Source of the DNA: Betaproteobacteria bacterium
GTDB taxonomy: Bacteria; Pseudomonadota; Gammaproteobacteria; Burkholderiales; Ga0077523
Length of the DNA stretch: 64,000 nt
Assembly (NCBI GenBank): GCA_016125475.1
Contig: WGLR01000011.1
Coordinates: 6,780-70,779, forward strand
Direction of reading: 5' to 3'
Shown here piece after piece: positions 13,330-44,981 of the stretch. Numbering within the stretch: the first letter of the stretch is position 1; each line of letters opens with the position of its first letter. The notes under the pieces are model-generated. The model was given only the letters and a program-made list of their open reading frames with translations. It was not told where the DNA came from and ran no database searches. The position numbers were made by a program, and so were the translations under genes.

Positions 13330-13414
13330 GAGCAGGATGATCCGTAGTACAGACAGGAAAGATCGAACATTCGGCGGGAGCGACCGCGGCAACGACCCGG
13401 AGGATGCCAGAGAG

Positions 13415-14348: not shown

Positions 14349-14381
14349 GGAAAAGACGATGGCCGCGCCAGGCACGGCCAT
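14349..14381 (-). terminator. candidate rho-independent terminator of the phosphoesterase gene
   Basis: On the minus strand, ATGGCCG-9 nt-CGGCCAT hairpin followed by CGTCTTTTCC, 25 nt downstream of the stop at 14406. Confidence 0.45.
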
Positions 14382-14405
14382 CTCCCTGGTTGAATGCGCT
14401 GCGCG

Positions 14406-16009: not shown

Positions 16010-16762
16010 TCAAGGCGTTCGTGGCACCGCCCGCCGACGCAGGTTCGTGAATGCCGCGAGTTCCCACTCCCTCATGGCCAGCAGCAGCCCGACCCCACGC
16101 CGTTTCGCAAGTGGTGCGTCGAGACTCTCCTCGTGAAGCTCCGTCAGTCGCTGCCGCAACCTGCGCAGTTCCGAGCGCATCTTCGCGATGGCCGCATCCG
16201 TGAGCATCCCGTGGGAGAACGCAAGAATGTCGTCGGCTCCGACGAACGCGTGTCCCAGGAAGTCGCCCATTCCCTGCCGGAGGAAGTACGCCCGTATCGG
16301 GCCGTTCGGCAGCCAGTCGAAGTCGTGGGCGACGTTGAGGCGGATGCGGTCGCCCGGCAGCAGGTCGATCAGTCGCAACCGGTCGAGTCTCGCGAGTCTG
16401 CCGACGACCTCGGTCTCGGTCAGATCGTAGGCGCGCGTGATCTCGGCGGTCGTCCAGCGATTCAGAACGCACACCGCGACGAGCAGCGTCTTCGTATCTG
16501 CGACGAGTTCGCGCTCCTGCCTCTCGTCGAGCGTCGTCAGTCGACCGGCATGAGCGGCCGACTCCTCCACCAGCTCGACAAGCGTCAATCCGAGCGCCCG
16601 CGCGATCTCGACGAGCCGGTCGACGGTGAAACGTCCCGACGCGAACATCCGCTTCACCGTGGGCTCGGAGATGCCCAGGCTGCCGGACAGGTCCTGGTAC
16701 GTCATCCCGCGGGCTTTCAGCTGGCGCTTCAGGGTGGCGACGAGTCGTTCGATCTCGGACAT
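16010..16762 (-). CDS. XRE-family helix-turn-helix transcriptional regulator with uncharacterised C-terminal domain
   Basis: N-terminal HTH (MTYQDLSGSLGISEPTVKRMF). Divergent from the MFS::acyltransferase gene. Start 16762 or 16792. Confidence 0.7.
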   Translation of the reverse strand: MSEIERLVATLKRQLKARGMTYQDLSGSLGISEPTVKRMFASGRFTVDRLVEIARALGLTLVELVEESAAHAGRLTTLDERQERELVADTKTLLVAVCVLNRWTTAEITRAYDLTETEVVGRLARLDRLRLIDLLPGDRIRLNVAHDFDWLPNGPIRAYFLRQGMGDFLGHAFVGADDILAFSHGMLTDAAIAKMRSELRRLRQRLTELHEESLDAPLAKRRGVGLLLAMREWELAAFTNLRRRAVPRTP

Positions 16763-17060
16763 GGGGAAGGATCGTTTTTCGATACGCGGCATTCTACGAT
16801 CCGCGACTTCTCCGGCCCACGCTTCCGTTCCGGATGGCTTCGAAGCATGCTTGGCCTCGAACGCAGGGAGGAACGATGACGATGGTCACGACCATGCAGC
16901 GGGAAGCGGCAGGGGACATTCGGACGGGGTCGGACGATGGCCGGGAAGAGCCTGCCCCCCGGAGCACGACGGGTCCCACCGTGTCCGTCTGCGGTGGGCC
17001 GTTGCCCTCTACGAGGCCGAGCCCGCGCGCCGGGCGCGTCGATCACCGGGCAGACGAGCG

Positions 17061-18938
17061 ATGAGCTCCCAGTACCAGCTCGTCGGAACACGGCGTTTCG
17101 GTCCGTTCTTCGGCACACAGTTCCTCGGCGCCTTCAACGACAACCTCTTCAAGAACGCCCTCGTCGTGCTGCTGACGTTCCATTCCGCCCAGTGGACGTC
17201 AGTCAGACCCGAACTGCTTTCCAACCTCGCAGCCGGCGTCTTCATCCTCCCGTACTTCCTCTTCTCAGCCACGGCGGGACAGCTTGCGGACAAGTTCGAC
17301 AAGGCGCGACTCGCACGACTCCTGAAGCTTTTCGAGATCGGTATCGTCCTGATCGCAGGCCTCGGCTTCCACTTCCACCATCTCTGGCTGCTGATGACCT
17401 GCCTGTTCCTTCTCGGCATTCATTCGACGTTCTTCGGACCGGTCAAGTACGCGATCCTTCCGCAGCATCTGTCGGAGGAGGAACTCGTCGGCGGGAACGC
17501 TCTCGTCGAAGCCGGAACGTTCGTCGCCATCCTGCTCGGCACGCTCGCCGGCGGCCTGCTCGCGGGGGCGGGACACGGAAATTTCTGGGTTTCCGCGGCC
17601 TGTCTCGCCGTCGCCGCGGCCGGCTATCTCGCGAGCCGAGGCATTCCACCCGCTCCGGCTCCGGAACCGACGCTGCGCCTCAATCCGAATCCTTTCACGG
17701 AGACGTGGCACAACATAGGCTTCGCACGGGCGAACCGGACGGTGTTCCTGTCGATTCTCGGCATCTCGTGGTTCTGGCTCTATGGCGCCCTGTTCCTCGC
17801 GCAGTTCCCGGCGTACACGAAGTCCGTTCTGGGGGGCACGGAATCCAGCGTCACGCTGGTGCTGGCCACATTCACGCTCGGAATCGGCTTCGGTTCGATG
17901 CTGTGCGAGCGTCTGTCCGGCCGGCACGTCGAGATCGGGCTGGTGCCTTTCGGTTCGATCGGCCTCACGCTGTTCGGACTCGACCTCGCACTCGCCTCGC
18001 CGGCGATACCGTCCCCGGAACCCCTGGGCGCGCTCGCGCTGGTCGCGTCACCGGGCACATGGCGGGTGCTCGTCGACCTGTTCGGGATCGGCCTGTTCGG
18101 CGGATTCTTCATCGTTCCGCTCTACGCCCTGATCCAGCTTCGCTCGAACCGGGAGCATCGCGCACGCATCATTGCGGCAAACAACATCATGAATGCGCTG
18201 TTCATGGTCGGGGGAGCACTCGCGGCCGCAGGGCTTCTCTCTGCCGGCCTCACGATCCCCCAGATGTTCGGCGTCGCGGCGCTCTGCAATGCGGCGGTGG
18301 CGGTATACATCTACCGGCTCGTGCCGGAATTCCTGCTCCGGTTCATCGTCTGGCTGCTCGTCCACTCCGTCTACCGGCTCGAGAAGAACGGGATCGAGCA
18401 CATCCCGCACGAAGGCGCCGCGCTCCTCGTCTGCAATCACGTGAGCTTCGTCGACGCGCTCGTGATCATGGCCGCGAGCCCGCGACCCATCCGCTTCGTG
18501 ATGGACCACCGCATCTTCCGGTGGCCGGTCCTGTCCTTCGCGTTCCGGGCGAGCGGTGCCATTCCGATCGCTTCCGCCAGGGAAGACCATGCGGTGATGG
18601 AGAAAGCGCTGGGCGAAGCCGCGGCCGCTCTCGCGAACGGGGAACTCGTCGGCATCTTCCCTGAAGGCGCGATCACGACAGACGGCGAAATCGGCCCGTT
18701 TCGCCCCGGAACGACCCGCATTCTCGAGCGGTCACCAGTCCCGGTGATTCCCATCGGCCTGTCCGGCCTCTGGGGAAGCATCTTTTCGCGCAGCGGCGGC
18801 CGTGTCCTGTCCAGTCCCTGGCGTGCACGGCCGTTTCGTCGCGTGCGCCTGAATGCCGGCCGCCCCCTCCCCGCGCACGTTGCCGAACCGGAAGCACTCC
18901 GCCTCCAGGTGCTCGCATTGCGCGGACGGACGCCGTGA
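17061..18938 (+). CDS. MFS transporter (LplT-like) fused to PlsC-type acyltransferase domain
   Basis: 625 aa from the ATG at 17061. The N-terminal ~400 aa are a 12-TM MFS. The C-terminal ~200 aa carry the NHVSFVDA (HX4D) and FPEGAIT acyltransferase motifs. Confidence 0.85.
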   Translation: MSSQYQLVGTRRFGPFFGTQFLGAFNDNLFKNALVVLLTFHSAQWTSVRPELLSNLAAGVFILPYFLFSATAGQLADKFDKARLARLLKLFEIGIVLIAGLGFHFHHLWLLMTCLFLLGIHSTFFGPVKYAILPQHLSEEELVGGNALVEAGTFVAILLGTLAGGLLAGAGHGNFWVSAACLAVAAAGYLASRGIPPAPAPEPTLRLNPNPFTETWHNIGFARANRTVFLSILGISWFWLYGALFLAQFPAYTKSVLGGTESSVTLVLATFTLGIGFGSMLCERLSGRHVEIGLVPFGSIGLTLFGLDLALASPAIPSPEPLGALALVASPGTWRVLVDLFGIGLFGGFFIVPLYALIQLRSNREHRARIIAANNIMNALFMVGGALAAAGLLSAGLTIPQMFGVAALCNAAVAVYIYRLVPEFLLRFIVWLLVHSVYRLEKNGIEHIPHEGAALLVCNHVSFVDALVIMAASPRPIRFVMDHRIFRWPVLSFAFRASGAIPIASAREDHAVMEKALGEAAAALANGELVGIFPEGAITTDGEIGPFRPGTTRILERSPVPVIPIGLSGLWGSIFSRSGGRVLSSPWRARPFRRVRLNAGRPLPAHVAEPEALRLQVLALRGRTP

Positions 18939-19007
18939 TCGGGCGAGCCGCCGTCGACGTCACACTGCATTAAACCCATGGCGAAACCACACGAAGGAGC
19001 ATGGAAG

Positions 19008-19838
19008 ATGAGGAACACCATATCGGGAGCGCTCGTCGCGCTGACACTGCTGTTCGCCGGGTGCGTGTCGTGGTTCCCGCAGCAGGGCGCGAAGCAGACC
19101 GGCAGCGCCGTCGATTACCTGTATCCGGATGCGAAGCAGCCACCGAATCTGCAGCCGACCGTCACCTACATTCGCCCGCCGGTTCGCGTCGGGATCGCGT
19201 TCGTCCCGGGCGGCAACTGGGCCAAGGGCCTCACGGAAAAGGAGCGCATGGACCTTCTGGACCGTGTGAAGGAATCCTTCTCGGGATACGACTTCATCGG
19301 CGGCATCGAAGTCATTCCCGGTGAGTACATGCGCCCGCAGGGTGGATTCACCAACCTCGAACAGGTCGCACGCCTGCTCGACGTGGAAGTGGTCGCCCTG
19401 CTTTCCTTCGACCAGGTCCAGTTCAACGACTCGAACGCACTGTCCATGCTCTACTGGACGCTGGTCGGCGCCTACGTCATCCACGGTGACCGGTACGACA
19501 TCCAGACGATGGTCGACGCCGCCGTCTTCGACGTGAAGAGCCACAAGCTCCTGTTCCGTGCGGCGGGGACCAGCCAGGTGAAGGGATCTGCTTCGCTGGC
19601 AGGCTTCAACGAGCAGTCGAGGGCCGCGCGCACGCAGGGCTACGACCAGGCCGTGAACGAGCTCATACCGCACCTGAAATCGGCGCTGGAAACGTTCAGG
19701 GAACGAATCAGGACGGACTCGAACTATCGCGTCGAGAACAAGCCGGGTTACTCGGGCGGTGGCGACTTCGGCGCATTCGGCATCGTGCTCGCGCTGATCC
19801 TCGCGGGCATCGCGATCACGGTCCGCCGGGAGTCCTGA
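19008..19838 (+). CDS. rhombotarget lipoprotein with GlyGly-CTERM sorting signal
   Basis: Lipobox LLFAGC at the N-terminus. The C-terminus GYSGGGDFGAFGIVLALILAGIAITVRRES is Gly-Gly + TM helix + basic cluster. Lies immediately upstream of the rhombosortase gene. Confidence 0.8.
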   Translation: MRNTISGALVALTLLFAGCVSWFPQQGAKQTGSAVDYLYPDAKQPPNLQPTVTYIRPPVRVGIAFVPGGNWAKGLTEKERMDLLDRVKESFSGYDFIGGIEVIPGEYMRPQGGFTNLEQVARLLDVEVVALLSFDQVQFNDSNALSMLYWTLVGAYVIHGDRYDIQTMVDAAVFDVKSHKLLFRAAGTSQVKGSASLAGFNEQSRAARTQGYDQAVNELIPHLKSALETFRERIRTDSNYRVENKPGYSGGGDFGAFGIVLALILAGIAITVRRES

Positions 19839-28845: not shown

Positions 28846-28957
28846 GAGAACACTCCCGACAAGGACGAAGTGAGATACCGCGCTTTAGAAGGGCCGGACG
28901 GTCGCGAGTTCCGGAACCGGCCTCGGCAAGGTCGGTCGGACGGTGGGCAACCGCCCC

Positions 28958-30853
28958 TCAGCCGGAGACGACGGCCTCGAGCTTCTCATGCAGCGCCAGC
29001 CATTCTTCCTCCAGCGCCTCGAGTTCGCGTCGGACGTCCGACTGCTCCAGCAGGCCGGCCTTGAGTTCGTCCTTCCGCTGCGCATCGTAGATATCGGGGG
29101 CCGCAAGGCGCGCTTCAAGTGCCCGGAGCCGTTCCTCGTGACGGCTCATCGCGCTTTCGACCTGCTTCAGTCGCTGCTCGATGGGCTTCCGTGCACTCGC
29201 CGCGCGTTGCCGGGCTTCTGCCTCGACACGCTTCTGCTCCTTCCGCGTCGTGCCATCCGGCGCGCGTCCGGCCGGGTCCCGCTCCGGGGCGGCGGCGGCT
29301 TCCAGCCAGGCGCGGTACTCGTCCAGGTCGCCGTCGAAGGGCCGCACCTTCCGATCCGCCACGAGCCAGAGATCGTCGACAGTCGTTCGCAGCAGCGCAC
29401 GGTCGTGGGAAACGAGCACCATGGCTCCCGTGAACGACTGGAGAGCGAGCGCGAGCGCGTTTCGCATCTCCATGTCCAGATGGTTCGTGGGCTCGTCGAG
29501 CAACAGGAGGTGCGGCCTGGAGTAGGTGATCAGGGCGAGCGCGAGGCGAGCTCTTTCACCCCCGGACATCGTGTCGACGGCCGCGAGGACGGCGTCGCCA
29601 CGGAAGTTGAAGCCTCCCAGGAAGTCCCGCAAGTCCTGCTCGCGCGCCCTGGGGTCGAGTCGTGCAAGGTGTCCGAGTGCGGAGTCGTCCGACCGCAGCT
29701 GTTCCACCTGATGCTGCGCGAAATACCCGATGCGCACGTCGCGCCCGAGAAGGCGCTGTCCACCGGTCGGGGTCAGGGTGCCCGCGATGAGCCGCACGAG
29801 GGTGGACTTCCCTGCGCCGTTTCTCCCCAGCAGCCCTATCCGCGCGCCCGGGCGGATCACGCAGTCGACCGCCTCGAGCACGACACTCTCGCCGTAGGCC
29901 GCCCCCACCTTCTCGAGCGACAGCAGCGGGTCCGCGAACCCGCCCGGATCCGCAAACTCGAATTCGAACGGTGTCGTCGCCTGGACCTGTGCGATGACGC
30001 TCATGCGGTCGAGCGCCTTCAGCCGGCTCTGCGCCTGACGGGCCTTCGTCGCCTTCGCACGGAAACGGCGCACGAACGCCTCCAGATGCTCGATCTGCCG
30101 CTGCTGCTTCTCGTAGAGTGCCTGCTGGTGCGAGAGCACTTCGGCGCGCGTGCGTTCGAATGCCGAGTACCCGCCCGCGTAGCTCCGCAGGGTCCCCTGA
30201 TCGAAGTGACAGATGCCCTGGACGACGTTGTCGAGGAATTCACGATCGTGCGAGATCACGAGCAGCGTGCCCCGGTAGGCCCTGAGCCAGGACTCCAGCC
30301 AGAAGACCGCGTCGAGATCGAGGTGGTTGGTGGGTTCGTCGAGAAGCAACAGGTCCGAGCGGCACATGAGCGCGCGGGCGAGCTGCAGCCTGACACGCCA
30401 TCCACCCGAGAACTCCCTGACGCTCCGGTCATGATCGTCGGGCGAGAACCCGAGACCAGCCATCAGGGATGCGGCTCTCGAACGGGCCGAGTGGCCCTCG
30501 ATGTCCGCGATGCGCGCATGGAGTTCGCCGATGCGGTGACCGTCGGCGTCCTCCCGGGCGAGATCCGACTCCAGTTGCCGAAGTTCGGCATCCCCGTCGA
30601 TCACGAAGTCCAGGGATCCGCGCTCGAGGTCCGGGACCTCCTGGGCGACGTGTGCCAGCACCCAGTCACGCGGAAGATCGATTTCGCCGGCGTCCGGCAG
30701 CAGTTCACCGCGCAACAGGGCGAACAGGCTGGACTTGCCGGAACCGTTGGGCCCCACGATGCCGATCTTCTGGCCCGGAAACACCGAGAGCGATGCGCTC
30801 TCCAGGAGCAGTTTCGTGCCTCTGCGGAGAGTCAGACCCTGGAGGCGAAGCAT
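28958..30853 (-). CDS. yheS: ABC-F family ATPase YheS-like
   Basis: 631 aa from the ATG at 30853. Two ABC cassettes, FRAKATKARQAQSR linker and C-terminal coiled coil, collinear with E. coli YheS. The ORF extension to 30931 runs into tRNA-His and is rejected. Confidence 0.9.
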   Translation of the reverse strand: MLRLQGLTLRRGTKLLLESASLSVFPGQKIGIVGPNGSGKSSLFALLRGELLPDAGEIDLPRDWVLAHVAQEVPDLERGSLDFVIDGDAELRQLESDLAREDADGHRIGELHARIADIEGHSARSRAASLMAGLGFSPDDHDRSVREFSGGWRVRLQLARALMCRSDLLLLDEPTNHLDLDAVFWLESWLRAYRGTLLVISHDREFLDNVVQGICHFDQGTLRSYAGGYSAFERTRAEVLSHQQALYEKQQRQIEHLEAFVRRFRAKATKARQAQSRLKALDRMSVIAQVQATTPFEFEFADPGGFADPLLSLEKVGAAYGESVVLEAVDCVIRPGARIGLLGRNGAGKSTLVRLIAGTLTPTGGQRLLGRDVRIGYFAQHQVEQLRSDDSALGHLARLDPRAREQDLRDFLGGFNFRGDAVLAAVDTMSGGERARLALALITYSRPHLLLLDEPTNHLDMEMRNALALALQSFTGAMVLVSHDRALLRTTVDDLWLVADRKVRPFDGDLDEYRAWLEAAAAPERDPAGRAPDGTTRKEQKRVEAEARQRAASARKPIEQRLKQVESAMSRHEERLRALEARLAAPDIYDAQRKDELKAGLLEQSDVRRELEALEEEWLALHEKLEAVVSG

Positions 30854-30898
30854 GACGCGCGGACGAAGGTGGGCAATGCGGGGCGAGGAGCGGAGGTC

Positions 30899-30975
30899 TG
30901 GGGTGGCGGATGGGACTCGAACCCACGACAACCGGAATCACAATCCGGGACTCTACCAACTGAGCTACCGCCACC
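30899..30975 (-). tRNA. tRNA-His (anticodon GTG)
   Basis: 77 nt with the extra 5' G(-1). Anticodon stem CCGGA/TCCGG, loop TTGTGAT, discriminator C, encoded CCA. Confidence 0.92.
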
Positions 30976-31075
30976 ATCGAAGGACACTGCTGCGAGCAGC
31001 CCCGTCGAGGGCGCGGAGTATGACCAAAACCCCGGTCGCTGTAAACCGATCCTGCAACGGAACGTCGGGAGCGGC

Positions 31076-31152
31076 TGGCGTGCCCGGAGGGGATCGAACC
31101 CCCAACCCCCGGCTTAGAAGGCCGGTGCTCTATCCGATTGAGCTACGGGCAC
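31076..31152 (-). tRNA. tRNA-Arg (anticodon TCT)
   Basis: 77-nt cloverleaf. Acceptor GTGCCCG/CGGGCAC, anticodon stem CCGGC/GCCGG, loop CTTCTAA, encoded CCA. Confidence 0.92.
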
Positions 31153-31180
31153 CGTGCGCGCCCCTCGCACAGCGGGACGG

Positions 31181-31260
<80 letters not shown>

Positions 31261-31301: not shown

Positions 31302-31673
31302 ACGGACCGCGACAGGCGACATCGCGACCCGGGGAAGCTCTCCGCGGGAGGGCCCGTGTCGGAAATTCATGCAGGCTGGCTAACCATTCAGGATATGCCG
31401 GCGGCTTCGCAAAAGCTTGACAGCCCAGCCATGGAATGCCAGTTGCAACCATCGCCCGTCAGGAAGTGAGGACACGTCGATGAAGGCCGTCTCGACCCCA
31501 TCCGAACGTTTCCGGATGCCGTCGTACTTGCTCCGGGATGCTCGTCTCATCGATCTGTCGCAGCCTCCAGAGTCGTGCGCCATCTCGCCGGATCACCCGG
31601 CGCGGCGCACATCACCAGGCAAAACGTGCGACGACGTACCGCGTTCGAAGCGTATACAGGCAATGAGGTAAGC

Positions 31674-32024
31674 ATGAAGAACCAAGGCAAGATCTCCAAC
31701 CCGCGCGACATCCGTCACCGGCTGGGGCTGAATCAACAGCAGTTCTGGGGCATGATCGGTGTCACCCAGAGCGGCGGCTCGCGCTACGAGAGCGGCCGCA
31801 GCATGCCGAAGCCCGTGCAGCAGCTTCTGCGGCTCGTCCACGTCGATCGCATCGACATCGCGCGCCTCACGAAGGCCGACTACGAAGTCATTTCGTTCCT
31901 CAAGAACGCCAAGCCCGACCTTTACCGCCGGCTGCGTACGGAAGCGTCCGGAAGCGGCACCCGTTCCACACGGTCAACGGCCGCCACATCGCGTCGCACC
32001 GCAGTCGCTGCGCGGCACGTCTGA
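31674..32024 (+). CDS. small XRE-like helix-turn-helix protein
   Basis: 116 aa from the ATG at 31674, with GAGG 7 nt upstream. HTH core LGLNQQQFWGMIGVTQSGGSRYESGRSMPKPV. Ser/Thr/Arg-rich tail. Followed by a strong terminator. Confidence 0.7.
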   Translation: MKNQGKISNPRDIRHRLGLNQQQFWGMIGVTQSGGSRYESGRSMPKPVQQLLRLVHVDRIDIARLTKADYEVISFLKNAKPDLYRRLRTEASGSGTRSTRSTAATSRRTAVAARHV

Positions 32025-35619: not shown

Positions 35620-36549
35620 ATGGAACAACCATCGACACCAGAGAAACGAGTCATGAACGCCGCATACGCTGATCTCTCGGAATTCACTTCCCCCTCCGTC
35701 GACGCGACTCCGGGTTTCATGGGCGCACTGGAGCAATTCCGGTCGCGAAGCGCCGAAGCCTCCTGGAAGGAGTTCGTGAGAACGTCGCCGCTCGTCAGAC
35801 AGTGGCGCTTCTTTCTATCGCACGATCCATACACGCGCTGGGGTCTGGTCAAGCCACGAGGTTATCCCGGCGACGCGACGCTCATGGACTTCGCGTACCG
35901 GCACCCTTCGGTCGAACGCCATGTCGCGGACGCGAGCACGCTGGGCCGTTCGATATATGAAATCACCCAGGGTGCGCCGCAGTCCAGGTCCGCCCGTGAT
36001 CGGGTCGACATGATGAGAAAGAGGCTGGTCGAAGCGGACTCCCGCGGGCCCGTGCACGTCGTCTCGCTCGCTTGCGGTCATGCGCGCGAACTCGAGAACC
36101 TTGATAACGAAGACATCGAGTTTGGCAGCATCACGTTCCTGGACAACGACCCTCTGTCCCTGTCGATCGCGTCGACTGCGCACGACGCCGCGGTGACTCG
36201 CCCCATCAGAATCAATGTCGTCAAGGAACCTCTGCCGCGCCTTCCCGAGGCACATATCGTATATGCCATGGGGCTCTTCGACTACCTGACGGACACCTAC
36301 GCAACGGACGTCACGAGGAAGATGCTCGCCCTGCTGAAGCCCGGTGGATCCTGCATCATCGGCAATCTCGATCCCGGTGCCGCCAACCTCGGCTACTGCG
36401 AGGCCATGATGGACTGGTGGATGATCGTTCGCGACAGCCAGGCACTGCTCGATCTGGGCAAAACCGCGGCGAGCGCGGTGGCAGGAACGTTCAGTTGCAC
36501 CGTCGAAAGATCAGGATGTTTCAATTACCTGACGATTGCACGCACGTGA
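35620..36549 (+). CDS. class I SAM-dependent methyltransferase with ~130-aa N-terminal extension
   Basis: Rossmann-type SAM motif VVSLACGHARE, acidic FLDNDP, and a post-motif GGSCIIGN. The N-terminal region contains KPRGYPGDATLMDFAY. Alternative start 35653. Confidence 0.75.
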   Translation: MEQPSTPEKRVMNAAYADLSEFTSPSVDATPGFMGALEQFRSRSAEASWKEFVRTSPLVRQWRFFLSHDPYTRWGLVKPRGYPGDATLMDFAYRHPSVERHVADASTLGRSIYEITQGAPQSRSARDRVDMMRKRLVEADSRGPVHVVSLACGHARELENLDNEDIEFGSITFLDNDPLSLSIASTAHDAAVTRPIRINVVKEPLPRLPEAHIVYAMGLFDYLTDTYATDVTRKMLALLKPGGSCIIGNLDPGAANLGYCEAMMDWWMIVRDSQALLDLGKTAASAVAGTFSCTVERSGCFNYLTIART

Positions 36550-36599
36550 ATTGACCCGAGAAGCCTGATCTGGAACGCGCACGCGCCCCCTGTCCGCCC

Positions 36600-38273
36600 A
36601 TGCTCCTCCCCCATCTCCTCGCGTCCCGCACAGCCGCGGTGAACCTGTGGCACGGACGGAACACACTCGAAACCTGGGATGCATCCCACCTGCGCGGCCG
36701 CGTCGCCCAATGGGCGACGGGACTCTACGACCTTGGCGTCCGACCTGGGTCGGTCGTGGCAACCGCCGCTCCGACGTCTCTCGAACTGATCGCCTCGCTG
36801 ATTGCCGCCTGGTACTGCGGCGCTGCAGTCACCGTCCTCCCGGAGCCTGTCGGCGCCGGCACGGCCGGCGAGCATCGCTTCCTCGAGGGCTTGGAAGCTA
36901 CCGAGCCGGAATTCCTGATCACATCAAAGGACTTCGGCGCCGTCGTCCCGGAATCGGTCACCGTCGCCGACCTTGCCCGGGTACCGTCCGTTGCCTCCGC
37001 ACCGCACCAGACTGGCCCCCGGGGCCCATGTCTGCCGGTAATCACCGGCTCCAGGTCCGTCGCCCTCCTGCAACTGACTTCGGGTAGTACCGGGCGATCG
37101 AAAGTCGTTCCCGTCACCCACGAGATGCTCCTCGCGAACTGCCAGGCGTCCTCCCGTCGCGCCGCGATCAACAGCGCTGACCACATGGTGAGCTGGCTGC
37201 CGTTGACTCACGACATGGGATTCTCCGGCGCCTTCGTTCACGCTCTCGTGAACGACATCGAACTCACGCTCATCCCCACGGAGCAATTCGCCCGATTTCC
37301 ACTCTGCCTTCTTCAGGCAATTTCACACACTCGAGCGACGCTTTCCCCAAACCCGCCCTCTGCCTACGGCATCCTTGCAAGATTTTCAGGAAGGGCGATC
37401 GCGGAGAACCTCGACCTCTCCACCTGGCGTTATGCATGGGTCGGCGCCGAGCCAGTCTTCGCCAACATTCTCGAGCGGTTCGAGACTTCGATGCGGCCCG
37501 TCGGCCTCCGCTCCAACACGCTCAAACCATCGTACGGCATGGCGGAAGCGGTCGTCGCGATCACGGCGCCGGCCTCCGGACCACCGTGGCAAGGATTGTC
37601 CATAAGAGCCGACGCGCTGCGTATGCAAGGCCTTGCGATCCCGTGTGACCGCGGGTCTCCCGACGCAATCGTGCTTGTCTCCAACGGCCCCCCCCTCGAC
37701 GGAATCGACGTCAAGGTCTGCGACGACTCCGGCACGCCCCTACCAGATGGTCATCAGGGTGTGCTGTGGGCGCGGGGCGCGTCCGTCCTCACGAGGTATC
37801 TGAATGGCGAAGATGGCTCCCGATTCGTGAACGGCTGGTACGAAACCGGCGACATCGGCTTCCTGTGGCAAGGAGAGGTGTACGTGTCGGGGCGCGCCAA
37901 GGATCTGATCGCAAGAGGCGGCATCAAGATCGGGGCAAGAGAAATCGAATGTGTCGTGGAGGAGGTACTCGGCCTGCACTACGGTCGAGTGGCGGCCTTT
38001 TCCTATTGCGACCACGTCATCTCACGAGAACGCGTCATCGTCCTGATTTCACGAAACTCCGGGGGTAGTGACGCAGCCGGGAGCCGCGAGATCGCCGAGA
38101 TCATCACTCGAACCTGCGGAATCCAGATCGATGAGGTGTCTTTTTGTGGTCCCGGACATTTTCCGAGAACCACCAGCGGGAAACTGCGCCGCAGCGAAAT
38201 TCGCCAGCGGTGGGAATGTGGCGAGTTTCGTACGCGATCGTCAGCACACCAATATGACACACTCGCTCTTTGA
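36600..38273 (+). CDS. fatty-acyl-AMP ligase (FAAL) / acyl-ACP synthetase-like adenylating enzyme
   Basis: AMP-binding motifs LQLTSGSTGRSK, SYGMAEA, YETGDIGF, GRAKDLI and C-terminal SGKLRR. The pattern resembles FadD32-type FAALs rather than CoA ligases (inference). Confidence 0.85.
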   Translation: MLLPHLLASRTAAVNLWHGRNTLETWDASHLRGRVAQWATGLYDLGVRPGSVVATAAPTSLELIASLIAAWYCGAAVTVLPEPVGAGTAGEHRFLEGLEATEPEFLITSKDFGAVVPESVTVADLARVPSVASAPHQTGPRGPCLPVITGSRSVALLQLTSGSTGRSKVVPVTHEMLLANCQASSRRAAINSADHMVSWLPLTHDMGFSGAFVHALVNDIELTLIPTEQFARFPLCLLQAISHTRATLSPNPPSAYGILARFSGRAIAENLDLSTWRYAWVGAEPVFANILERFETSMRPVGLRSNTLKPSYGMAEAVVAITAPASGPPWQGLSIRADALRMQGLAIPCDRGSPDAIVLVSNGPPLDGIDVKVCDDSGTPLPDGHQGVLWARGASVLTRYLNGEDGSRFVNGWYETGDIGFLWQGEVYVSGRAKDLIARGGIKIGAREIECVVEEVLGLHYGRVAAFSYCDHVISRERVIVLISRNSGGSDAAGSREIAEIITRTCGIQIDEVSFCGPGHFPRTTSGKLRRSEIRQRWECGEFRTRSSAHQYDTLAL

Positions 38274-38520
38274 TCAACTCGTCGCCAGGATCCGAGAAGA
38301 CGCAACACATGGCGCCTTGCCTGCATTTCTTCAGGTCGCATCCATTTCTCCGGACATGACGCTTGACGAACTGGGCATGGACTCCCTGGGACGCATGTAT
38401 CTTCTGACGATGCTCCTGGAACTGAGCGACGCCCCCCTTTCGGAAGAAGCGTTCCTGCCGCAACGAACGCTCCGGGAGATCGTTGAATTCGTCGACACCG
38501 CGATGCACGTGCCCAGGTGA
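38254..38520 (+). CDS. acyl carrier protein
   Basis: 88 aa. LDELGMDSLGRMYL contains the DSL phosphopantetheine-attachment serine. The ATG lies 20 nt inside the 3' end of the FAAL gene. Confidence 0.8.
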   Translation: MTHSLFDQLVARIREDATHGALPAFLQVASISPDMTLDELGMDSLGRMYLLTMLLELSDAPLSEEAFLPQRTLREIVEFVDTAMHVPR

Positions 38521-39584
38521 ACACTTCCCCCGAGACGACCGTCCAGCATCCCCAGCGCAGCGCTCTCCGCGCCGCACTGGCCCAGTACGCGAGCCCGAGT
38601 ACAACGCTTGCTCTCTTCTGGGTCGCCGTCGATTCGACGGCGTTCATTCTGGCGAGCGCAGCAGCGGTCTCTGCATCGAGTCTAGTCTGGAAATCATTGG
38701 CCTCTGTCGGCGTCGGCATCATGATCGCCCGCCTGTTCATCATCGGCCATGATGCGTGCCACCATGCCCTGACACGGCACCGGGCATTGAACAGACTCGT
38801 GGGGCGTTTGACCTTCCTCCCCTCGTTGACGCCATTCAGCCTCTGGGATCTCGGCCACAATCAGGCACATCACGGGTTCACGAACCTGAATCCCCGAGAC
38901 GCCGTCTGGGCGCCACTCTCGGCCGATGACTTTGGAGCGCTCTCTCCCCGGAGAAGACGGATGGAATGCCTCTACAGGAGCGGATGGGCACCCGCCGTCT
39001 ACTACGTCATGGAGATCTGGTGGAAGAAACTCATCTTCCCCCGGGTCGACCAAATCGGCAGCTACCGCAGCATTTACGGGAGAGACAGTCTCCTGGTTTC
39101 AGCCTTTGCCGTGGCTTGGGTGACACTGGTGGCCGTGTCGGCATACGGCTCGAATGGGTCGATCACCGAGGCGCTGTTCTTCGCCTGCTTCCTTCCGCTG
39201 CTGTTCTGGAGCTGGCTGATGGGTTTCATCATCTATATCCACCATACCGATCCATCCATTGCGTGGTTCAGGGACGTGACAGCCTGGGCAGCATCGCAGC
39301 CGTACCTTACCGCTACGCTATATGTGGAGTGCCCGATACTGGACAGTCTCCTTCACAACATCCTTCAGCATCCCGCGCACCATCTGAACATGACGATCCC
39401 ATTTTACCGTCTGAAGGCCGCGCAGAAACGATTGCAGGACATCGTTCCAGAGTATATTCGAACCAGGCGGCTGACCTGGTCGTACTACTGGCGGGTCGCG
39501 GAGCAGTGCAAACTCTACGATTACGACAATCGTCGATGGCAGCCGTTTTCCGCAATAACGCGTGAGCATCACGAAAGCGCCTGA
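38517..39584 (+). CDS. membrane fatty-acid desaturase-family di-iron enzyme
   Basis: GTG start overlapping the ACP stop (GTGA). Three histidine boxes, HDACHH, HNQAHH and HPAHH, with TM segments between them. Confidence 0.85.
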   Translation: MNTSPETTVQHPQRSALRAALAQYASPSTTLALFWVAVDSTAFILASAAAVSASSLVWKSLASVGVGIMIARLFIIGHDACHHALTRHRALNRLVGRLTFLPSLTPFSLWDLGHNQAHHGFTNLNPRDAVWAPLSADDFGALSPRRRRMECLYRSGWAPAVYYVMEIWWKKLIFPRVDQIGSYRSIYGRDSLLVSAFAVAWVTLVAVSAYGSNGSITEALFFACFLPLLFWSWLMGFIIYIHHTDPSIAWFRDVTAWAASQPYLTATLYVECPILDSLLHNILQHPAHHLNMTIPFYRLKAAQKRLQDIVPEYIRTRRLTWSYYWRVAEQCKLYDYDNRRWQPFSAITREHHESA

Positions 39585-39922
39585 TGTCCGACTGCCGATC
39601 CTCCGGGGCCCGGGCTCTCGCTCCGTCGAAACACCGCAATGCACGGGCGAGGTCTTGGCTCACGCGCCGACGTCAATGCAGGCACGCTCCCGCCTTGAGA
39701 CGTGTTGCGTGAACACGGTCGACTCCGCTCTTTTGGATGGATGCCCCCGAAAGCTTGTAATGATTTCCCGAAAAATATTCAGTAACGCGCGCCGCCGCAC
39801 CGAACCTGTCATTTCGCCGGCGGGCGGAGTCGGCCCGCCTTCGGTGGTCGGAGCCAAAGGGCTTTTCCGAGACGGCTCGCACGACGAATCCGGGACAGCC
39901 CAGACGGATCCAGATCGTTAGA

Positions 39923-41047
39923 TCAGGTGATCCGAGACGCAGGAAGGCTCACCAACAGTCGTACGAGTTCCGACTGTCTGTTGGTAGAAGTCTTTTCAAG
40001 AACCTTACGCAATTGCGATCGAGCGGTGGCAACCGAAATGCCCGTTTCGCTCGCGCAGTCCTCGACGGTCTTCCCATGTGCAAGTCTCCGCGCGAGTCTC
40101 GCCTCGGCCGGCGACAAACCAAAGAGCTGGCGCAACTGGGATTCGGTCAACATGCGTTGATGGTTTCGTCGCCGCAAGAGAATGATGGCAGACGGGCGGC
40201 AAAGCAGGGACGGCAGAGTCGCGGACTCCTGGATGGGTGCAACTGTCAGGTACAGGTCTTCTCCACGACCACTGCGATCCAGGACGGGAATACTCGAGGA
40301 ATGTCCCCGGCGTGCGGCACGCTGCAACGCTTCGCGCAAGGAATGCGCGATGTTCCCGTCGCTTGCCGTGAACACTCCCTGTTTGACGGCAACCTCGGCT
40401 GAAGACCGGACAATTGCCTCAGCTTGGCGGTTCGCATACAGCACGCGCCCCTGCCCGTCCAGTGCGAGCACCGCGATCTCCATCTGATCGAGGCCACTTT
40501 CACCGAGAACCGCTCGACGTCTGAGTTGCTCGGTCTGTACGAACAAGGCGTTCGCCCGGGTGAAATGCCCCCAGACACGACGCGCCCGCTCCAGTTCTTC
40601 CCTCGAATATCCGCCTCGGTCATGCGCCCGAAGCATTCCCAGAACCGTATGGACGCCTTCCTCGACGGGTGCGGTCCCGCCGATTGACCAGCAGACACCG
40701 TTTCGGATCAGAAAATCTTGGAAGAACTCGTTCTTCTCCACGAATGGGCGATCGAAATGTTCCTGTACGACGAAGAACTGCCCTGGCGCTACCGCAACGG
40801 CCTTCGGCCGGATCGGATCCACCTTGCTGTAATACGCCTCCCATTGCTGCATGGTATCGAGATAGTGATCGTTCGACACCAGTGACACTCTGGCGCGACC
40901 CTCGTTCTGATCCCACGCATAGAAGTGGAATTCTGACGAGCCTATCCATCGCCCGAAATCAAGCAGTGCCGGCCGCCATAGGTCAGGATTGATGGCCGCC
41001 TCATAGATCTGCCCCACGATGCGGTCCAGCTCGTCGTTTTCATTCAT
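39923..41047 (-). CDS. LuxR-family transcriptional regulator with ~300-aa non-receiver N-terminal sensor region
   Basis: C-terminal GerE/LuxR HTH (LSPAEARLARRLAHGKTVEDCASETGISVATARSQLRKVLEKT). The N-terminus shows neither a phospho-acceptor pattern nor an obvious AHL-binding signature. Confidence 0.85.
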   Translation of the reverse strand: MNENDELDRIVGQIYEAAINPDLWRPALLDFGRWIGSSEFHFYAWDQNEGRARVSLVSNDHYLDTMQQWEAYYSKVDPIRPKAVAVAPGQFFVVQEHFDRPFVEKNEFFQDFLIRNGVCWSIGGTAPVEEGVHTVLGMLRAHDRGGYSREELERARRVWGHFTRANALFVQTEQLRRRAVLGESGLDQMEIAVLALDGQGRVLYANRQAEAIVRSSAEVAVKQGVFTASDGNIAHSLREALQRAARRGHSSSIPVLDRSGRGEDLYLTVAPIQESATLPSLLCRPSAIILLRRRNHQRMLTESQLRQLFGLSPAEARLARRLAHGKTVEDCASETGISVATARSQLRKVLEKTSTNRQSELVRLLVSLPASRIT

Positions 41048-41930
41048 CGCCTGGTGGTCCTCATCGAGAGAATTGTCATCGACCTTAGGAGACGCACGCC
41101 TTGCGCAAGCCTGCTATTCCGTTGTCACTTTCCGAATCTGCGCACGAACGGTTCGTACGTTCGAGTTCTCGGAGTTCATCGCAGAGGTTTGTCATATTCC
41201 GTCATGTCACACTTAAGAACTCATGGCGTGACCAAGACCGCGCGCGAAACATGCAAAACATTCACGATGACCTTGTCTGTCACGCTTGATCCACCTTGCC
41301 CTCGGATTCAACCTGCACAAGAAATCTGTCCGAACGTCAGTTCAGTCGCACCTGCTCTCCTCTATATTCATTAAAACCAAAAACGGCTCTGTCCGCGTCA
41401 TCCATTTTGATTAGATGAAATGTCCTCAGAGACACTCTGGCGATCATCTTTAAGCGCGATTCACCGTGGGTCACCTCCCTGTTACGACGAACACGAACTC
41501 GGACGACAGGAAAGTCCTTCCAAGCGTGTCATCCGCAATGTTGACGATTCGCAAAGTTTTCGTCCCGGATAATTTCCGGGACGTAGCCAACCTTTCTGCA
41601 TGAACTGGCCCGATGACACCGATTCCTTCCAGAACGAAAGACATGTCATGAATCTTTCTGCAGCATGCGCCTGCGACCATCCTCCCGAAGCAGGTGAGAC
41701 CACGCGAATCGAGGGTCTCATTCGCCCGATCTGGACAACGCAAAGGAATGGCCAGTTTCATCGCCCCAATTCGCTTCGCAGTCGGCCTCCGTTAACCGCG
41801 TCCGCCATGAGATCAGGCAGCTTTATCCTGAAGACGCGATCACATCCGTTGTCATCTTCGAGGCATGTCACTCCGCCTCCCCACTAATTTCCGGTGTAGC
41901 GCCCAGAAGATTCACCGAGCGAGAAGTCCA

Positions 41931-44297
41931 ATGCAGGCCATAGATTCCCGTCTCTCTTCACTTTCCGAATACACAGATTCCGATGACCCTGATCTGTTCA
42001 GGAAGGCGGAGGTTCTTGCCAGCTTCCATGAGGACGCTTCGACACGCGTATTTCTCAAGTACCTGGTTTCAATCAGCCGCCACAACGGCGGTCGCGCCGT
42101 CGTTCGGGATCCGACCGACGAGCGGGAGGTACTCGTCTTCTGCCTCGCCGACTACCTGGACCTTGCCCGGGACCCACGAACCATAGAAGCAGCGTGCAAA
42201 GCGACGGTCGAGAAAGGTCTGGGCGTCTACTCGGTACCGTGCATCGCCGGTTCCACCGACTTCCATCGCGAACTCGAGCGCGAGATCGCCGCTTTCGTCG
42301 GCGCTGAGGACTGCATCGTCTTTCCAACGGGCCAGGCGGCAAATTCGGCATCGATCACGGCCCTGTGCGGTGCCCGGGACTACATAGTCATCGACAAGCA
42401 GGTTCACGCAAGCGTTCTGGAAGGCGCGAGGCTCTCGGGTGCGAAGTTGCGGACGTTTCGCCACTCCGATCCTGACCATCTCGACGGGGTGCTCGGTGCC
42501 ATCCGGAATCGCGGCCACCGTCGGGGAATTCTCGTCATTGCCGAGGGTGTATACGGCCTGGATGGCGATGTGTCACCAGTCTCGACTCTCCACCACGTTT
42601 GCCATCGTCACGGCGCGCGGCTGTTCGTGGATGACGCCCACGGCACTGGCGTTCTCGGAGGCCGGGGGGCCGGCACCCACGACTTCTTCGGGACAAGGTG
42701 TCCGGACATTCTCAAGGGCTCGCTGAGCAAGAGCTTCGGCAGTGTCGGCGGGTGGATCGCAGCGAACCGCGAGGTGGTGTCCTATCTGAGGTTCTACTGC
42801 GACAGGCTGGTCTTGTCCGTGGGAGCAACTTTGGGTGCCGTCGCAGCCGCTAAGGCTTCTCTTCGCATCGTGGAGGGCGAACCCGCGAGGCGCCGGCGCC
42901 TACAGGAAAACGCCCGATATCTTCGTGACAGCCTGATCGCCATCGGAGTACCCAATGCGGCGATATCTTCGTCCGCGATCGTATCAATCCGAATCGACGA
43001 TGAACCCGCGCTTCGCGACCTGGTGAAGGAAGCCTACGACGCCGGACTGTGGATCGAAGGATTGCCGCATCCGGCCACAATGCTCGGTCAGGAACGCATT
43101 CGCCTGCGGGTGCGAGCATCCCACACCCGTGACGATATCTTCGATGCAGTCAGAATACTCGAGCGTTGCCTGGGTGCACGAGCTATGCTCGGTTCCAGAA
43201 AGCACACGATCCCTTCTACACCGGTCTCCAGGGAACCCGACGCGGCAGGCATCGTATCGCTGGTAATTCGCGAGGCTGATGCGAAGACGCTGAGACTCCC
43301 CTGGGCGACGATCGATTCCTTTTCAAAGATCGTCCACGCCGCGGGTTTCTGGAAAGATGCCATCGGCAACCACAAGTGGTTTACCGCGTCGACGCAGGGT
43401 CAGTTCAGCGCATGTCTGTGCGCTTCAATTCTGAAAATGGACGATGGCTTGCCGGTCGGCGCCCTCGGCCACATGCACTGGCTACCGGAGTGCGAAAACC
43501 TCATCAACAGACTGGTGGACGACGCATCGGGCTGGCTCTTCGCGAATGGGCCTCGCCGCATTATCGGACCGGCTCAGGTCCCGATTCAGGTGCTTGGCGC
43601 CGGCGTCTCCACGTCCATCCGCAACGACCTGCCATTCCTGGAGCCTTCCCTCGATCCACGGGTTCGCGAGGTACTGGAAAGGAAAGGATTCAAAACGGAG
43701 CTTCGACATACATATCGTCTGGTGAGCCTTGAAGGCTCTTCCATCCCGGACGATGCCGACACGCTGACGGACATTACATTCAGGCCGATCAGGCGGGAAT
43801 ATCTGACTGACGACACGCGCGCCCTCGCGAATGCCTTCAACCATGGCATTTCACGGTTGGGATACTGCAGCCGGCTCTCCGCGGATGTTCTGATAGGCGC
43901 CGCATACGAAATGCGCGAACTCGTCCTGCCGGACCTGTGGTGCCTGGCGATTGACGGACGAGGCGATGTCGTAGGCTTCGCGGGCGGCTTTCCCGATCTG
44001 CGCGTAGCCTTCCAGGATATCGGCGGAGCGGGCAAAATCTCGGACATCGATTACCTGAGGACCGCTACGGACAGTTGCACGCGTGGCTTCCTCGCATGGG
44101 CCAGCACCTCGGATCGCCCCGGCCACAGTGGCGCCGGCCGAGCAGCGTGTGCGCGTGTACTCCGTGCCATGAAAGCCCGCGGGTTCCGGGAAGCATGGAT
44201 CTCCTGGGAACTCGTAGATGGCGGACCGATTCAGTTCGACCATCTACCGACCCTGTCCACAATCACTCTGGACATCCTGAGCCGCAAGGCAGGTTAG
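41931..44297 (+). CDS. PLP-dependent alpha-oxoamine synthase (AONS/Spt/CqsA family) fused to ~370-aa C-terminal GNAT-like domain
   Basis: The N-terminal ~420 aa have class-II aminotransferase blocks: FPTGQAANSA, DDAHGTG, and the PLP-lysine context GSLSKSFG (K codon 42729-42731). The C-terminal part (about 43200-44297) has an RPGHSGAGRAACARVLRAMKARGF segment reminiscent of GNAT motif A. Alternative start 41865. Confidence 0.8.
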   Translation: MQAIDSRLSSLSEYTDSDDPDLFRKAEVLASFHEDASTRVFLKYLVSISRHNGGRAVVRDPTDEREVLVFCLADYLDLARDPRTIEAACKATVEKGLGVYSVPCIAGSTDFHRELEREIAAFVGAEDCIVFPTGQAANSASITALCGARDYIVIDKQVHASVLEGARLSGAKLRTFRHSDPDHLDGVLGAIRNRGHRRGILVIAEGVYGLDGDVSPVSTLHHVCHRHGARLFVDDAHGTGVLGGRGAGTHDFFGTRCPDILKGSLSKSFGSVGGWIAANREVVSYLRFYCDRLVLSVGATLGAVAAAKASLRIVEGEPARRRRLQENARYLRDSLIAIGVPNAAISSSAIVSIRIDDEPALRDLVKEAYDAGLWIEGLPHPATMLGQERIRLRVRASHTRDDIFDAVRILERCLGARAMLGSRKHTIPSTPVSREPDAAGIVSLVIREADAKTLRLPWATIDSFSKIVHAAGFWKDAIGNHKWFTASTQGQFSACLCASILKMDDGLPVGALGHMHWLPECENLINRLVDDASGWLFANGPRRIIGPAQVPIQVLGAGVSTSIRNDLPFLEPSLDPRVREVLERKGFKTELRHTYRLVSLEGSSIPDDADTLTDITFRPIRREYLTDDTRALANAFNHGISRLGYCSRLSADVLIGAAYEMRELVLPDLWCLAIDGRGDVVGFAGGFPDLRVAFQDIGGAGKISDIDYLRTATDSCTRGFLAWASTSDRPGHSGAGRAACARVLRAMKARGFREAWISWELVDGGPIQFDHLPTLSTITLDILSRKAG

Positions 44298-44651
44298 CCG
44301 GCGATACTCAGTTCTCGCAGACCGCGCTTACCGTCGCTCCGACACGATTCGGGCCGATCTGCGAGTACATGGCCCGGGTTGCAGGCCGAAAGGGTGTTGC
44401 TGCGGCTTTGACCACTCGACTGGTCCGGTTGTCGCGGAGAGTCGGTACGCTGCCTGAAGTGAAATTCCGCATTACACCGTGGTCAGTCTAACCGGCACGG
44501 GCCGACCAGTTCACTGCCCATGTCGTGGTCAGGCCACTTGTTCGCTTTCCAGCCATACAAGAAGAGCACGAACCGGAGGAACTCTTTCCTACGCTCCCGG
44601 CGAACACTTTGAATGAACGCTCGAGAATACCGCGTAAGCGACTGTTTTTAC

Positions 44652-44739
44652 TGGCGGAGGCGGTGAGATTCGAACTCACGAACGGTTGCCCGTTGCCGGT
44701 TTTCAAGACCGGTGCAATCGACCACTCTGCCACGCCTCC
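44652..44739 (-). tRNA. tRNA-Ser (anticodon TGA)
   Basis: 88-nt class II tRNA. Acceptor GGAGGCG/CGCCTCC, anticodon stem CCGGT/ACCGG, loop CTTGAAA, 16-nt variable arm, encoded CCA. Confidence 0.9.
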
Positions 44740-44981
44740 AGATGCACTCTTCCTGACCGGCGCGCACCCTGCCCCGCTTCCGGAGACCATCCCCAGCCTT
44801 CGGCGCCCCTCTCAATGCGCAGGGTTTCGGCGCACGTCGTCGGGCCACCCGTCGGCCGACAGGCTTGAATCGTTCCGGGCCGCCACCACCTTCGACGCCG
44901 GCAGGGTCAGCCAACGTTTCACACCCTCGGGGAGTCGGGGATGATACCTGTACGCATCCTTCTGAGAAACAAGACCATTGA

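Follow-up and report, generated by a model that had tools for sequence, protein, structure and literature searches.

A rare alpha-oxoamine synthase::tandem-GNAT fusion in a six-gene betaproteobacterial islet: a candidate locus for an N-acylated aminoketone lipid

What is made by a locus in which genes for the loading, desaturation and methylation of a fatty acid stand beside a synthase of the alpha-oxoamine synthase (AOS) family? The question is raised by 64,000 nucleotides of DNA from a Betaproteobacteria bacterium (assembly GCA_016125475.1, contig WGLR01000011.1, positions 6,780 to 70,779 of the forward strand), hereafter the window, of which positions 35,620 to 44,297 hold the six genes in question. 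They encode a methyltransferase (MT), a fatty-acyl-AMP ligase (FAAL), an acyl carrier protein (ACP), a membrane desaturase (DES), a LuxR-type regulator, and an AOS fused to a GNAT-like tail. The original prediction, made from the letters alone, had proposed that the cluster makes a desaturated, possibly methylated long-chain aminoketone, alpha-hydroxyketone or sphingoid-like molecule under LuxR-type control. The listing of open reading frames (ORFs) and their translation confirmed all six genes at the coordinates given earlier. Our tentative answer, held with a little under even confidence, is that the six genes are one acquired, self-regulated unit for an N-acylated long-chain alpha-aminoketone, a lipid resembling 3-keto-ceramide.

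The AOS fusion is central to this reading. Its longest ORF (41865-44297, + strand) has 810 codons, and translation probably starts at the ATG at 41931, for a product of 788 residues, because the N-termini of homologues and the starts chosen by independent gene callers begin there. The N-terminal ~440 residues form the AOS domain (Aminotran_1_2, 1.2e-39, 137 bits), in which the HAS, DDAH and SLSKSFG motifs were intact when aligned to KBL and SPT structures and invariant in 12 homologues. The catalytic His, the Asp-x-x-His and the Lys that binds pyridoxal phosphate (PLP) are thus conserved, as in alpha-oxoamine synthases, and the earlier assignment of this gene, divergent from the regulator, was borne out. 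In comparison to the curated NCBIfam subfamilies, the protein scored 272 bits with bioF TIGR00858 (cut-off 426), 255 with Kbl NF005394 (cut-off 460), 157.6 with the CqsA-type model NF005526 (cut-off 428), and 244, 240.7 and 182 with the CFB, Beta and Alpha Spt models (cut-offs 640, 500 and 670). Among PDB entries, KBL and SPT matched at ~1e-54 to 1e-56 and CqsA at 1e-29. The best NCBIfam and PDB scores, those of bioF and Kbl, could be taken to mean that the AOS is an ordinary paralogue from primary metabolism (BioF, Kbl or HemA) which lies near lipid genes by chance. However, these scores are well below the cut-offs, the family as a whole retains the C-terminal tandem GNAT, and genes of biotin, threonine and haem metabolism are absent nearby, so that we regard this explanation as highly improbable.

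Residues ~450-810 of the fusion matched no Pfam family and no PDB sequence, and they were kept in all full-length homologues. The AlphaFold2 (AF2) model of this C-terminal domain, built on homologues, reached pLDDT 86 and pTM 0.85. Foldseek matched the model over its whole length to tandem GNATs (E 1e-8 to 1e-12), including 3tt2, 7q3a, MAB_4324, the clavulanate tandem GNAT, mycothiol synthase MshD (2c27) and Eis. On this confident structure model, the domain is predicted to be a tandem GNAT N-acyltransferase, which gives the GNAT-like tail of the original prediction a fold. The Pfam model Acetyltransf_1 left the window protein unmatched and scored 30-46 bits (cut-off 20.7) in P0150, P0157, P0161 and P0163 (P-numbers stand for proteins or protein clusters, and L-numbers, used below, for fetched homologue loci); in these homologues the match fell in the second GNAT half. 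It is the GNAT domain that leads us to expect an N-acylated aminoketone as the product. From the original prediction we retain LuxR-type control and the condensation of an amino acid with a desaturated, possibly methylated carrier-bound acid, but a free aminoketone or alpha-hydroxyketone now appears less likely.

AOS::GNAT fusions are rare. Among 5.8 billion proteins searched, ~14 full-length ones were found, with 30-50% identity. Against 1.84 billion representative proteins, a GNAT-domain profile found ~15 AOS::GNAT clusters, more than 1000 stand-alone proteins of ~370 aa, and four clusters of 1500-1670-aa proteins with the domain order FAAL-ACP-AOS-GNAT, confirmed with Pfam (L006, P0161, P0163 and P0164). 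A metagenome scan with the GNAT domain gave only five loci, which were short or degenerate.

The gene neighbourhoods of these relatives support the predicted chemistry. In L094, AOS::GNAT is followed by FAAL and ACP genes, with a divergent regulator, and in L006 the four-domain fusion follows a PAS histidine kinase. A PilZ::AOS::GNAT protein is encoded in L097 after an HD-GYP response regulator and before a GAF kinase and a hybrid kinase, and an outer-membrane channel of the FadL/Toluene_X type adjoins AOS::GNAT in L095 and L007. The L003 locus combines AOS::GNAT with a TonB receptor, a kinase/response-regulator pair and a full-length homologue of the window regulator (27% identity, 2.5e-24). 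A mobile element carries the L001 locus, in which AOS::GNAT is followed by an MT homologue, PlsC-type acyltransferases, a HAD protein and a MacB/HlyD exporter. Every partner of the AOS::GNAT gene in the window, except the desaturase, therefore recurs with AOS::GNAT in some other lineage, which argues for a functional linkage. The L001 version of the cluster is mobile and widespread: the AOS::GNAT protein of this type was present in 58 blocks of the collection, of which 24 contigs were read. The element carries relaxase and primase genes, and its PlsC acyltransferase is split (L001 / L002, positions 3139-10721).

N-terminal PilZ fusions were seen in the AOS::GNAT family as well as among MTs resembling PhcB (L097, 2448-5249; P0142 and P0143), and on Rhizobium plasmids an MT homologue is divergent from a GGDEF-EAL gene (L180). 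The PilZ fusions together with the GGDEF-EAL neighbour suggest control of both enzymes by c-di-GMP. The L233 locus (3377-19498), from the cultured isolate Azospirillaceae bacterium CCP2-SC5, has three AOS genes, two FAAL genes and a PhcB-like MT in a lipid-type region that also holds a second MT, a FeeM-like N-acyl amino acid synthase and an acyl-CoA dehydrogenase; this isolate could serve as an experimental entry point.

The four plus-strand genes of the window form one operon, in which the MT gene ends 51 nt 5ʹ of the FAAL gene, the FAAL stop and the ACP start overlap by 20 nt, and the ACP stop and the DES start by 4 nt; the ACP is translationally coupled to both FAAL and DES. The earlier domain assignments of these four proteins held in Pfam, NCBIfam, PDB and AF2 comparisons. 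The FAAL has an AMP-binding domain (3.8e-49), PRK09192 (fatty acyl-AMP ligase, 9e-94) and MbtM are among its leading NCBIfam models, and its best PDB match is the E. coli FAAL 3pbk (3.4e-59). The ACP scored 32.2 bits with PP-binding (cut-off 20.8). The desaturase (FA_desaturase, 7.8e-29) has the His boxes HDACHH, HNQAHH and HPAHH, and its best NCBIfam match, DesA delta-5, reached 73.8 bits against a cut-off of 500. Its nearest relatives in genomes (42-44% identity; Ramlibacter, Alcaligenaceae, Polaromonas and a Paraburkholderia plasmid) lie in loci with no further genes of the cluster. The same four-gene order was found in L178 at 58-66% identity, with the same gene overlaps and a convergent regulator homologue; this locus holds the closest MT homologue (66% identity), and its regulator homologue is split into two ORFs.

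An arrangement of this kind is known from JamABC, a cassette of FAAL, ACP and membrane desaturase for ACP-dependent desaturation (PMC8406139). In the window and in L178 the three genes are likewise contiguous and overlapping, and the likeness to JamABC/TtuABC and to polyyne clusters is at the family level. By analogy with such cassettes, the substrate of the window desaturase would be an ACP-bound chain. The window differs in its gene order, FAAL-ACP-DES, and in that the downstream partner is an AOS and not a polyketide synthase (PKS) or nonribosomal peptide synthetase. Since FAAL-ACP-desaturase cassettes supply alkyne and polyyne antibiotics, an antibiotic or toxin has to be considered, either a mimic of sphingoid bases of the myriocin/sphingofungin type or an alkyne-bearing lipid, and the mobility of the cluster and the exporter genes that accompany AOS::GNAT in L001 would be consistent with it. 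Against this, the polyyne cassette consists of a desaturase triad, a thioesterase and a rubredoxin (PMC8406139), whereas the window islet has one desaturase and neither of the other two, and it contains no resistance gene or exporter. We consider this explanation improbable.

The MT gave only weak class-I S-adenosylmethionine (SAM)-dependent methyltransferase matches in Pfam (Methyltransf_25, 24.4 bits, below the cut-off of 27) and no match in NCBIfam. Its AF2 model (pLDDT 94) has the Rossmann methyltransferase fold with a helical N-terminal cap, and Foldseek placed it closest to 3ocj, an uncharacterised Bordetella protein, and then to small-molecule O-/C-methyltransferases. The MT belongs to a large family, and among ~100 homologues with 40-66% identity, several (42-50%) were named by JGI (Joint Genome Institute) as 'extracellular factor 3-hydroxypalmitic acid methyl ester biosynthesis protein', the KEGG Orthology (KO) name of PhcB. 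As in the Phc quorum-sensing system of Ralstonia solanacearum, a SAM-dependent methyltransferase is found beside regulatory genes, the resemblance to PhcB being one of JGI KO name only; PhcS and PhcR are, however, absent downstream of the window MT, and FAAL, ACP and desaturase genes are there instead. A DES homologue stood directly beside an MT homologue in 8 of 80 genome loci (L200, L209, L210, L212, L230, L248, L256 and L259) from Planctomycetota, Chloroflexota, Acidobacteriota and one cyanobacterium, and no other part of the cluster is conserved as widely as this MT-DES pair. A regulator homologue was near the MT homologue in two of the 80 loci, in one of them as a divergent pair in Aquabacterium, and both of these regulator homologues exceed the GerE cut-off.

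The base composition also bears on whether the six genes belong together. G+C content at third codon positions (GC3) was 0.66-0.73 in all six genes as compared to 0.78-0.84 in the flanking genes (ABC-F, RsaL-like HTH, katG, Bax1-I-family, RlmD-like, exonuclease and PEPCK), and this low-GC3 segment lies between katG and a tRNA-Ser gene (Table 1). The six genes look like one horizontally acquired islet. This uniformly low GC3, together with the recurrence of sub-combinations in other lineages, indicates that the set is more than a group of chance neighbours. A search around the islet for a directly repeated copy of the tRNA-Ser 3ʹ end was negative, and no integrase is present at the islet. The hairpin between katG and the MT gene is not followed by a T-tract; it is possibly a terminator or an element of the left islet boundary. 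Otherwise, the cluster proteins were encountered on one further contig only, short and identical, and the window region was unmatched in the plasmid collection.

Table 1. Positions of the six genes, their control region and the islet boundaries in the 64,000-nucleotide window
Feature	Coordinates	Strand	Remarks
19-bp perfect inverted repeat, 4-nt loop	35334-35375	.	between katG and MT gene
Class-I SAM methyltransferase (MT)	35620-36549	+	309 aa; helical N-terminal cap
Fatty-acyl-AMP ligase (FAAL) / acyl-ACP synthetase	36600-38273	+	557 aa
Stand-alone ACP	38254-38520	+	88 aa; DSL serine
Membrane fatty-acid desaturase (DES), three His boxes	38517-39584	+	355 aa
PAS_4 + LuxR/GerE-type HTH regulator	39923-41047	-	374 aa; convergent to MT operon
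Regulator-AOS divergent control region	41048-41930	.	883 nt; GC 0.525
Candidate operator TTGTCAT-N8-ATGTCAC	41189-41210	+	~140 nt upstream of regulator start
Candidate operator TTGTCAT-N9-ATGTCAC	41849-41871	+	~60 nt upstream of likely AOS start
AOS domain of AOS::GNAT fusion	41931-43211	+	PLP-dependent; longest ORF from 41865
Predicted tandem-GNAT N-acyltransferase domain, same polypeptide as AOS	43212-44297	+	C-terminal
tRNA-Ser(TGA)	44652-44739	-	ARAGORN + Rfam; 3ʹ end towards cluster; right islet boundary

The regulator had been described as a protein of the LuxR family. Its orientation is indeed convergent, and the assignment appears correct as to the C-terminal helix-turn-helix (HTH) domain at residues 300-365, which has weak GerE, TraR and sigma-70-r4 matches: GerE reached 16.4 bits (cut-off 23.5), TraR matched with its DNA-binding domain at E 0.015, and full-length homologues in L184 and L237 passed the GerE cut-off with 33.1 and 24.2 bits. 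The N-terminal region is without assignment, and a PAS_4 domain follows (30.9 bits, cut-off 23.1). The autoinducer-binding domain PF03472 gave no match, and the regulator is not a LuxR receptor of the N-acyl-homoserine lactone (AHL) type. Homologues of the regulator lie close to AOS::GNAT in L003 and close to the MT operon in L178 and L184.

In the control region between the divergent genes, the pentamer TGTCA occurs in 10 copies, nine of them on one strand, and TGTCA[CT] is enriched; the window mean is 0.95 per 883 nt, and none of 2000 shuffles reached 10. The composite motif TTGTCAT-N8/9-ATGTCAC occurs exactly twice in the 64 kb window, each divergent gene being preceded by one copy. A scan of the control regions for promoter and terminator consensus sequences gave nothing above chance.

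On the basis of these families and motifs, the following pathway can be proposed. FAAL would adenylate a free fatty acid and load it onto the dedicated ACP, and the desaturase could then introduce an unsaturation into the ACP-bound chain, as JamB-type enzymes do. The AOS domain would condense the acyl-ACP with an amino acid in a decarboxylative Claisen reaction, and the fused tandem GNAT would immediately transfer an acyl or acetyl residue to the reactive amine, in the order in which bCerS follows Spt in bacterial ceramide synthesis. As the last proposed step, the PhcB-like MT would add a methyl group. The PAS and LuxR-type regulator would control the divergent AOS::GNAT gene, possibly via the two TTGTCAT-N8/9-ATGTCAC sites.

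The original prediction stated that the locus fits neither the CqsA/LqsA nor the ceramide paradigm cleanly. With respect to ceramide, the locus turned out to be closer than claimed. The proteobacterial ceramide pathway consists of the adenylating enzyme AasR, the carrier AcpR, Spt, the cytoplasmic N-acyltransferase bCerS and the periplasmic reductase CerR (PMC11324152, PMC11087976), and bCerS is proposed to use the keto intermediate, so that it follows Spt (PMC11087976, PMC11324152). As in the pathway of Caulobacter crescentus, the window has a dedicated adenylating enzyme and a dedicated ACP, here within 4 kb of the AOS, and by analogy the AOS would condense an acyl-ACP with an amino acid and a soluble N-acyltransferase would act on the keto intermediate directly. 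Of the five functions, the window has four, two of them fused, with the equivalence to AasR and AcpR being one of families only. In contrast to the ceramide pathway, the window joins AOS and N-acyltransferase in a single polypeptide, its AOS does not qualify as an Spt equivalog, and the locus further includes a desaturase, a PhcB-like MT and a PAS-LuxR regulator. The lack of a CerR-type reductase was rightly noted before: none of the six proteins is a short-chain dehydrogenase/reductase (SDR) or epimerase, KdsR is likewise absent, and the nearest SDR lies 10 kb off, outside the islet.

A second line of evidence connects the GNAT domain itself to sphingolipids. When the GNAT profile was run against every ORF of the fetched loci, stand-alone relatives of the domain were found beside AOS genes. 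In two metagenome-assembled genomes (MAGs) of Bacteroidales (L069 and L081), the GNAT gene is immediately upstream of the AOS gene. In L069 (8741-11883, a Ca. Limimorpha MAG) this gene, at 8741-9868, encodes an uncharacterised tandem-GNAT protein; it is followed by Spt (SerpalmtaseCFB, 609 bits) and KdsR (329 bits), and it matched no NCBIfam model; in L081, only the GNAT-AOS order was read. From its position next to Spt and KdsR, the Bacteroidales GNAT is a candidate ceramide synthase for that group. In L027, a Chthoniobacterales MAG, the gene order is a fatty-acid-hydroxylase-like gene, AOS, a CDP-alcohol phosphatidyltransferase, GNAT and a second CDP-alcohol transferase. The hhalign comparison of the window GNAT domain to stand-alone GNATs beside Spt/AOS gave probabilities of 96.9% and 98.9%.

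This likeness may alternatively indicate a structural lipid of the envelope, an atypical keto- or deoxy-ceramide placed in the outer membrane under stress control, and not a signal. The FAAL, ACP, AOS and N-acyltransferase set matches the proteobacterial ceramide genes, some GNAT relatives share their loci with Spt and KdsR and others with head-group transferases, and PKS/AOS sphingolipid clusters were reported in 2025 in Pseudomonas and Burkholderia (PMC12134224). On the other hand, the islet is without a reductase, a head-group transferase and a lipid transporter, the AOS is at 240.7 bits well short of the beta-proteobacterial Spt cut-off, and the distribution of the fusion is rare, patchy and mobile with neighbours that are mostly signalling proteins. 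We regard an envelope lipid as rather unlikely.

A secreted or diffusible lipid mediator seems likelier than a bulk membrane lipid, since relatives of these genes stand beside sensor kinases, PilZ domains, FadL-type channels and exporters; the lack of a reductase or head-group enzyme, the small mobile elements and the signalling and transport neighbours also favour it. This may be extended to a broader proposal, that FAAL-ACP-AOS-tandem-GNAT enzymes make a new class of bacterial autoinducers, N-acyl alpha-aminoketone or 'keto-ceramide' signals. In the window the signal would be tailored by the desaturase and the PhcB-like MT and sensed by the PAS-LuxR regulator; elsewhere, the synthase would be wired to histidine kinases, to FadL/TonB uptake channels and, via PilZ, to c-di-GMP. 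This proposal is speculative, and we give it a low probability.

A further known system is that of the alpha-hydroxyketone autoinducer synthases CqsA, LqsA and JqsA. An AOS-family enzyme and a lipid-like product would be common to it and the window locus, and AOS::GNAT is found beside sensor kinases in L006 and L097. The window AOS differs in carrying an N-acyltransferase domain and in its ACP supply, and its match to the CqsA structure is much weaker than to KBL/SPT. As originally stated, there is no CqsS/LqsS-type sensor kinase between 35 and 45 kb.

Other combinations of an AOS with an acyltransferase have been described. In alaremycin biosynthesis, the ALAS-like AOS AlmA is followed by the N-acetyltransferase AlmB (PMC9356726), so that there, too, N-acylation by a GNAT-type enzyme follows directly on the AOS reaction; the enzymes are, however, separate, the substrate is the short-chain succinyl-CoA, and the cluster is without FAAL, ACP and desaturase. 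In Mycobacterium tuberculosis BioF2 (Rv0032), an N-acyltransferase-like region is fused to an AOS, and its function is not known (PMC6923341). By this description, BioF2 resembles the window protein in joining an AOS and an acyltransferase-superfamily region in one chain; the weak AOS-plus-acyltransferase matches in our protein search carry PF13480 and not a tandem Acetyltransf_1-type GNAT. The domain order of BioF2 is reversed in comparison to the window, with the acyltransferase region N-terminal, and its neighbours presumably include acpA and fadD34. In SxtA-type MT-GNAT-ACP-AONS megasynthases, one chain carries a single decarboxylating GNAT ahead of its ACP and AONS; the window differs in that its tandem GNAT follows the AOS on the C-terminal side and that MT and ACP are proteins of their own. 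Each single step of the proposed pathway is thus precedented, and the enzyme fusion and the gene combination are undescribed in the open-access literature, where we found no account of an AOS::tandem-GNAT fusion, of the four-domain megasynthases or of this gene set, in agreement with the original prediction. A 2025 review of FAALs mentions no PLP or AOS partner.

Several observations weigh against the reading of the six genes as one unit for an N-acylated aminoketone. The amino-acid substrate cannot be named, because the AOS is below every curated subfamily cut-off, and the acyl-CoA loop in the second GNAT half of the window protein is degenerate relative to homologues. The PhcB link of the MT is a lead based solely on the KO-derived names of JGI. 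Phosphopantetheinyl transferase, thioesterase and exporter genes are all absent from the islet, as was noted before. The candidate operator is not conserved, with no motif common to the window and L178, L003, L184 and L237, and no member of these families has a known product. Finally, there is no AOS::GNAT within 6 kb of the L178 operon, so the MT-FAAL-ACP-DES operon can work alone, and several AOS::GNAT genes (L095 and L003) have no nearby FAAL or ACP and may use acyl-CoA.

These last points could mean that the window holds two independent modules: the MT-FAAL-ACP-DES operon with its regulator would make a product of its own, for example a PhcB-type unsaturated fatty-acid methyl ester or an alkene/alkyne fatty acid, and AOS::GNAT would work separately on acyl-CoA. 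The locus is indeed modular, since the operon and regulator are found elsewhere without AOS::GNAT, as the five-gene module of L178 shows. The MT-DES pairs from many phyla are without FAAL or AOS, and the divergent pair in Aquabacterium unites MT and regulator homologues. However, the low GC3 is common to all six genes, at least five clusters have FAAL and ACP either next to AOS::GNAT or fused to it, and an MT homologue is directly downstream of AOS::GNAT in L001. In addition, a regulator homologue accompanies AOS::GNAT in L003, and the MT operon has no thioesterase for freeing an ACP-bound acid. We consider two modules possible but doubtful, and retain the single unit for an N-acylated aminoketone as the preferred reading.

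If this preferred reading is right, AOS::GNAT and the megasynthases would be compact makers of N-acyl aminoketones, in a fast-moving field in which the bacterial sphingolipid-like enzymes known so far are separate proteins. A fusion of Spt-like and CerS-like domains, together with the four-domain megasynthases, would also lend genetic support to the disputed 'acylate first, reduce later' order of ceramide synthesis. The repeated neighbourhood of sensor kinases, PilZ domains, LuxR-type regulators and hydrophobic channels raises the possibility of a new class of lipid signals. If the product were an ordinary modified ceramide, the locus would merely be a new member of a known pathway family.

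Some minor features of the window were also recorded. Rfam gave only the tRNA and sub-threshold noise, including a match to the small RNA sX4 (44583-44748, 32 bits against a gathering score of 70) that overlaps tRNA-Ser and is probably due to chance, and the PADLOC scan for defence systems gave zero matches. An orphan RsaL-like HTH protein (PF22495, 4.9e-25) is encoded at 31575-32024. Pseudomonas RsaL is usually encoded between lasR and lasI; here, no LuxI or LuxR gene lies within several kb, and an AHL quorum-sensing locus around this gene was rejected for this reason. The genes of tRNA-His, tRNA-Arg(TCT) and tRNA-Pro(TGG) are grouped at 30899-31260 on the - strand, where they are overlapped by two long spurious ORFs, 28943-31117 on the + strand and the end of 28958-30931 on the - strand.

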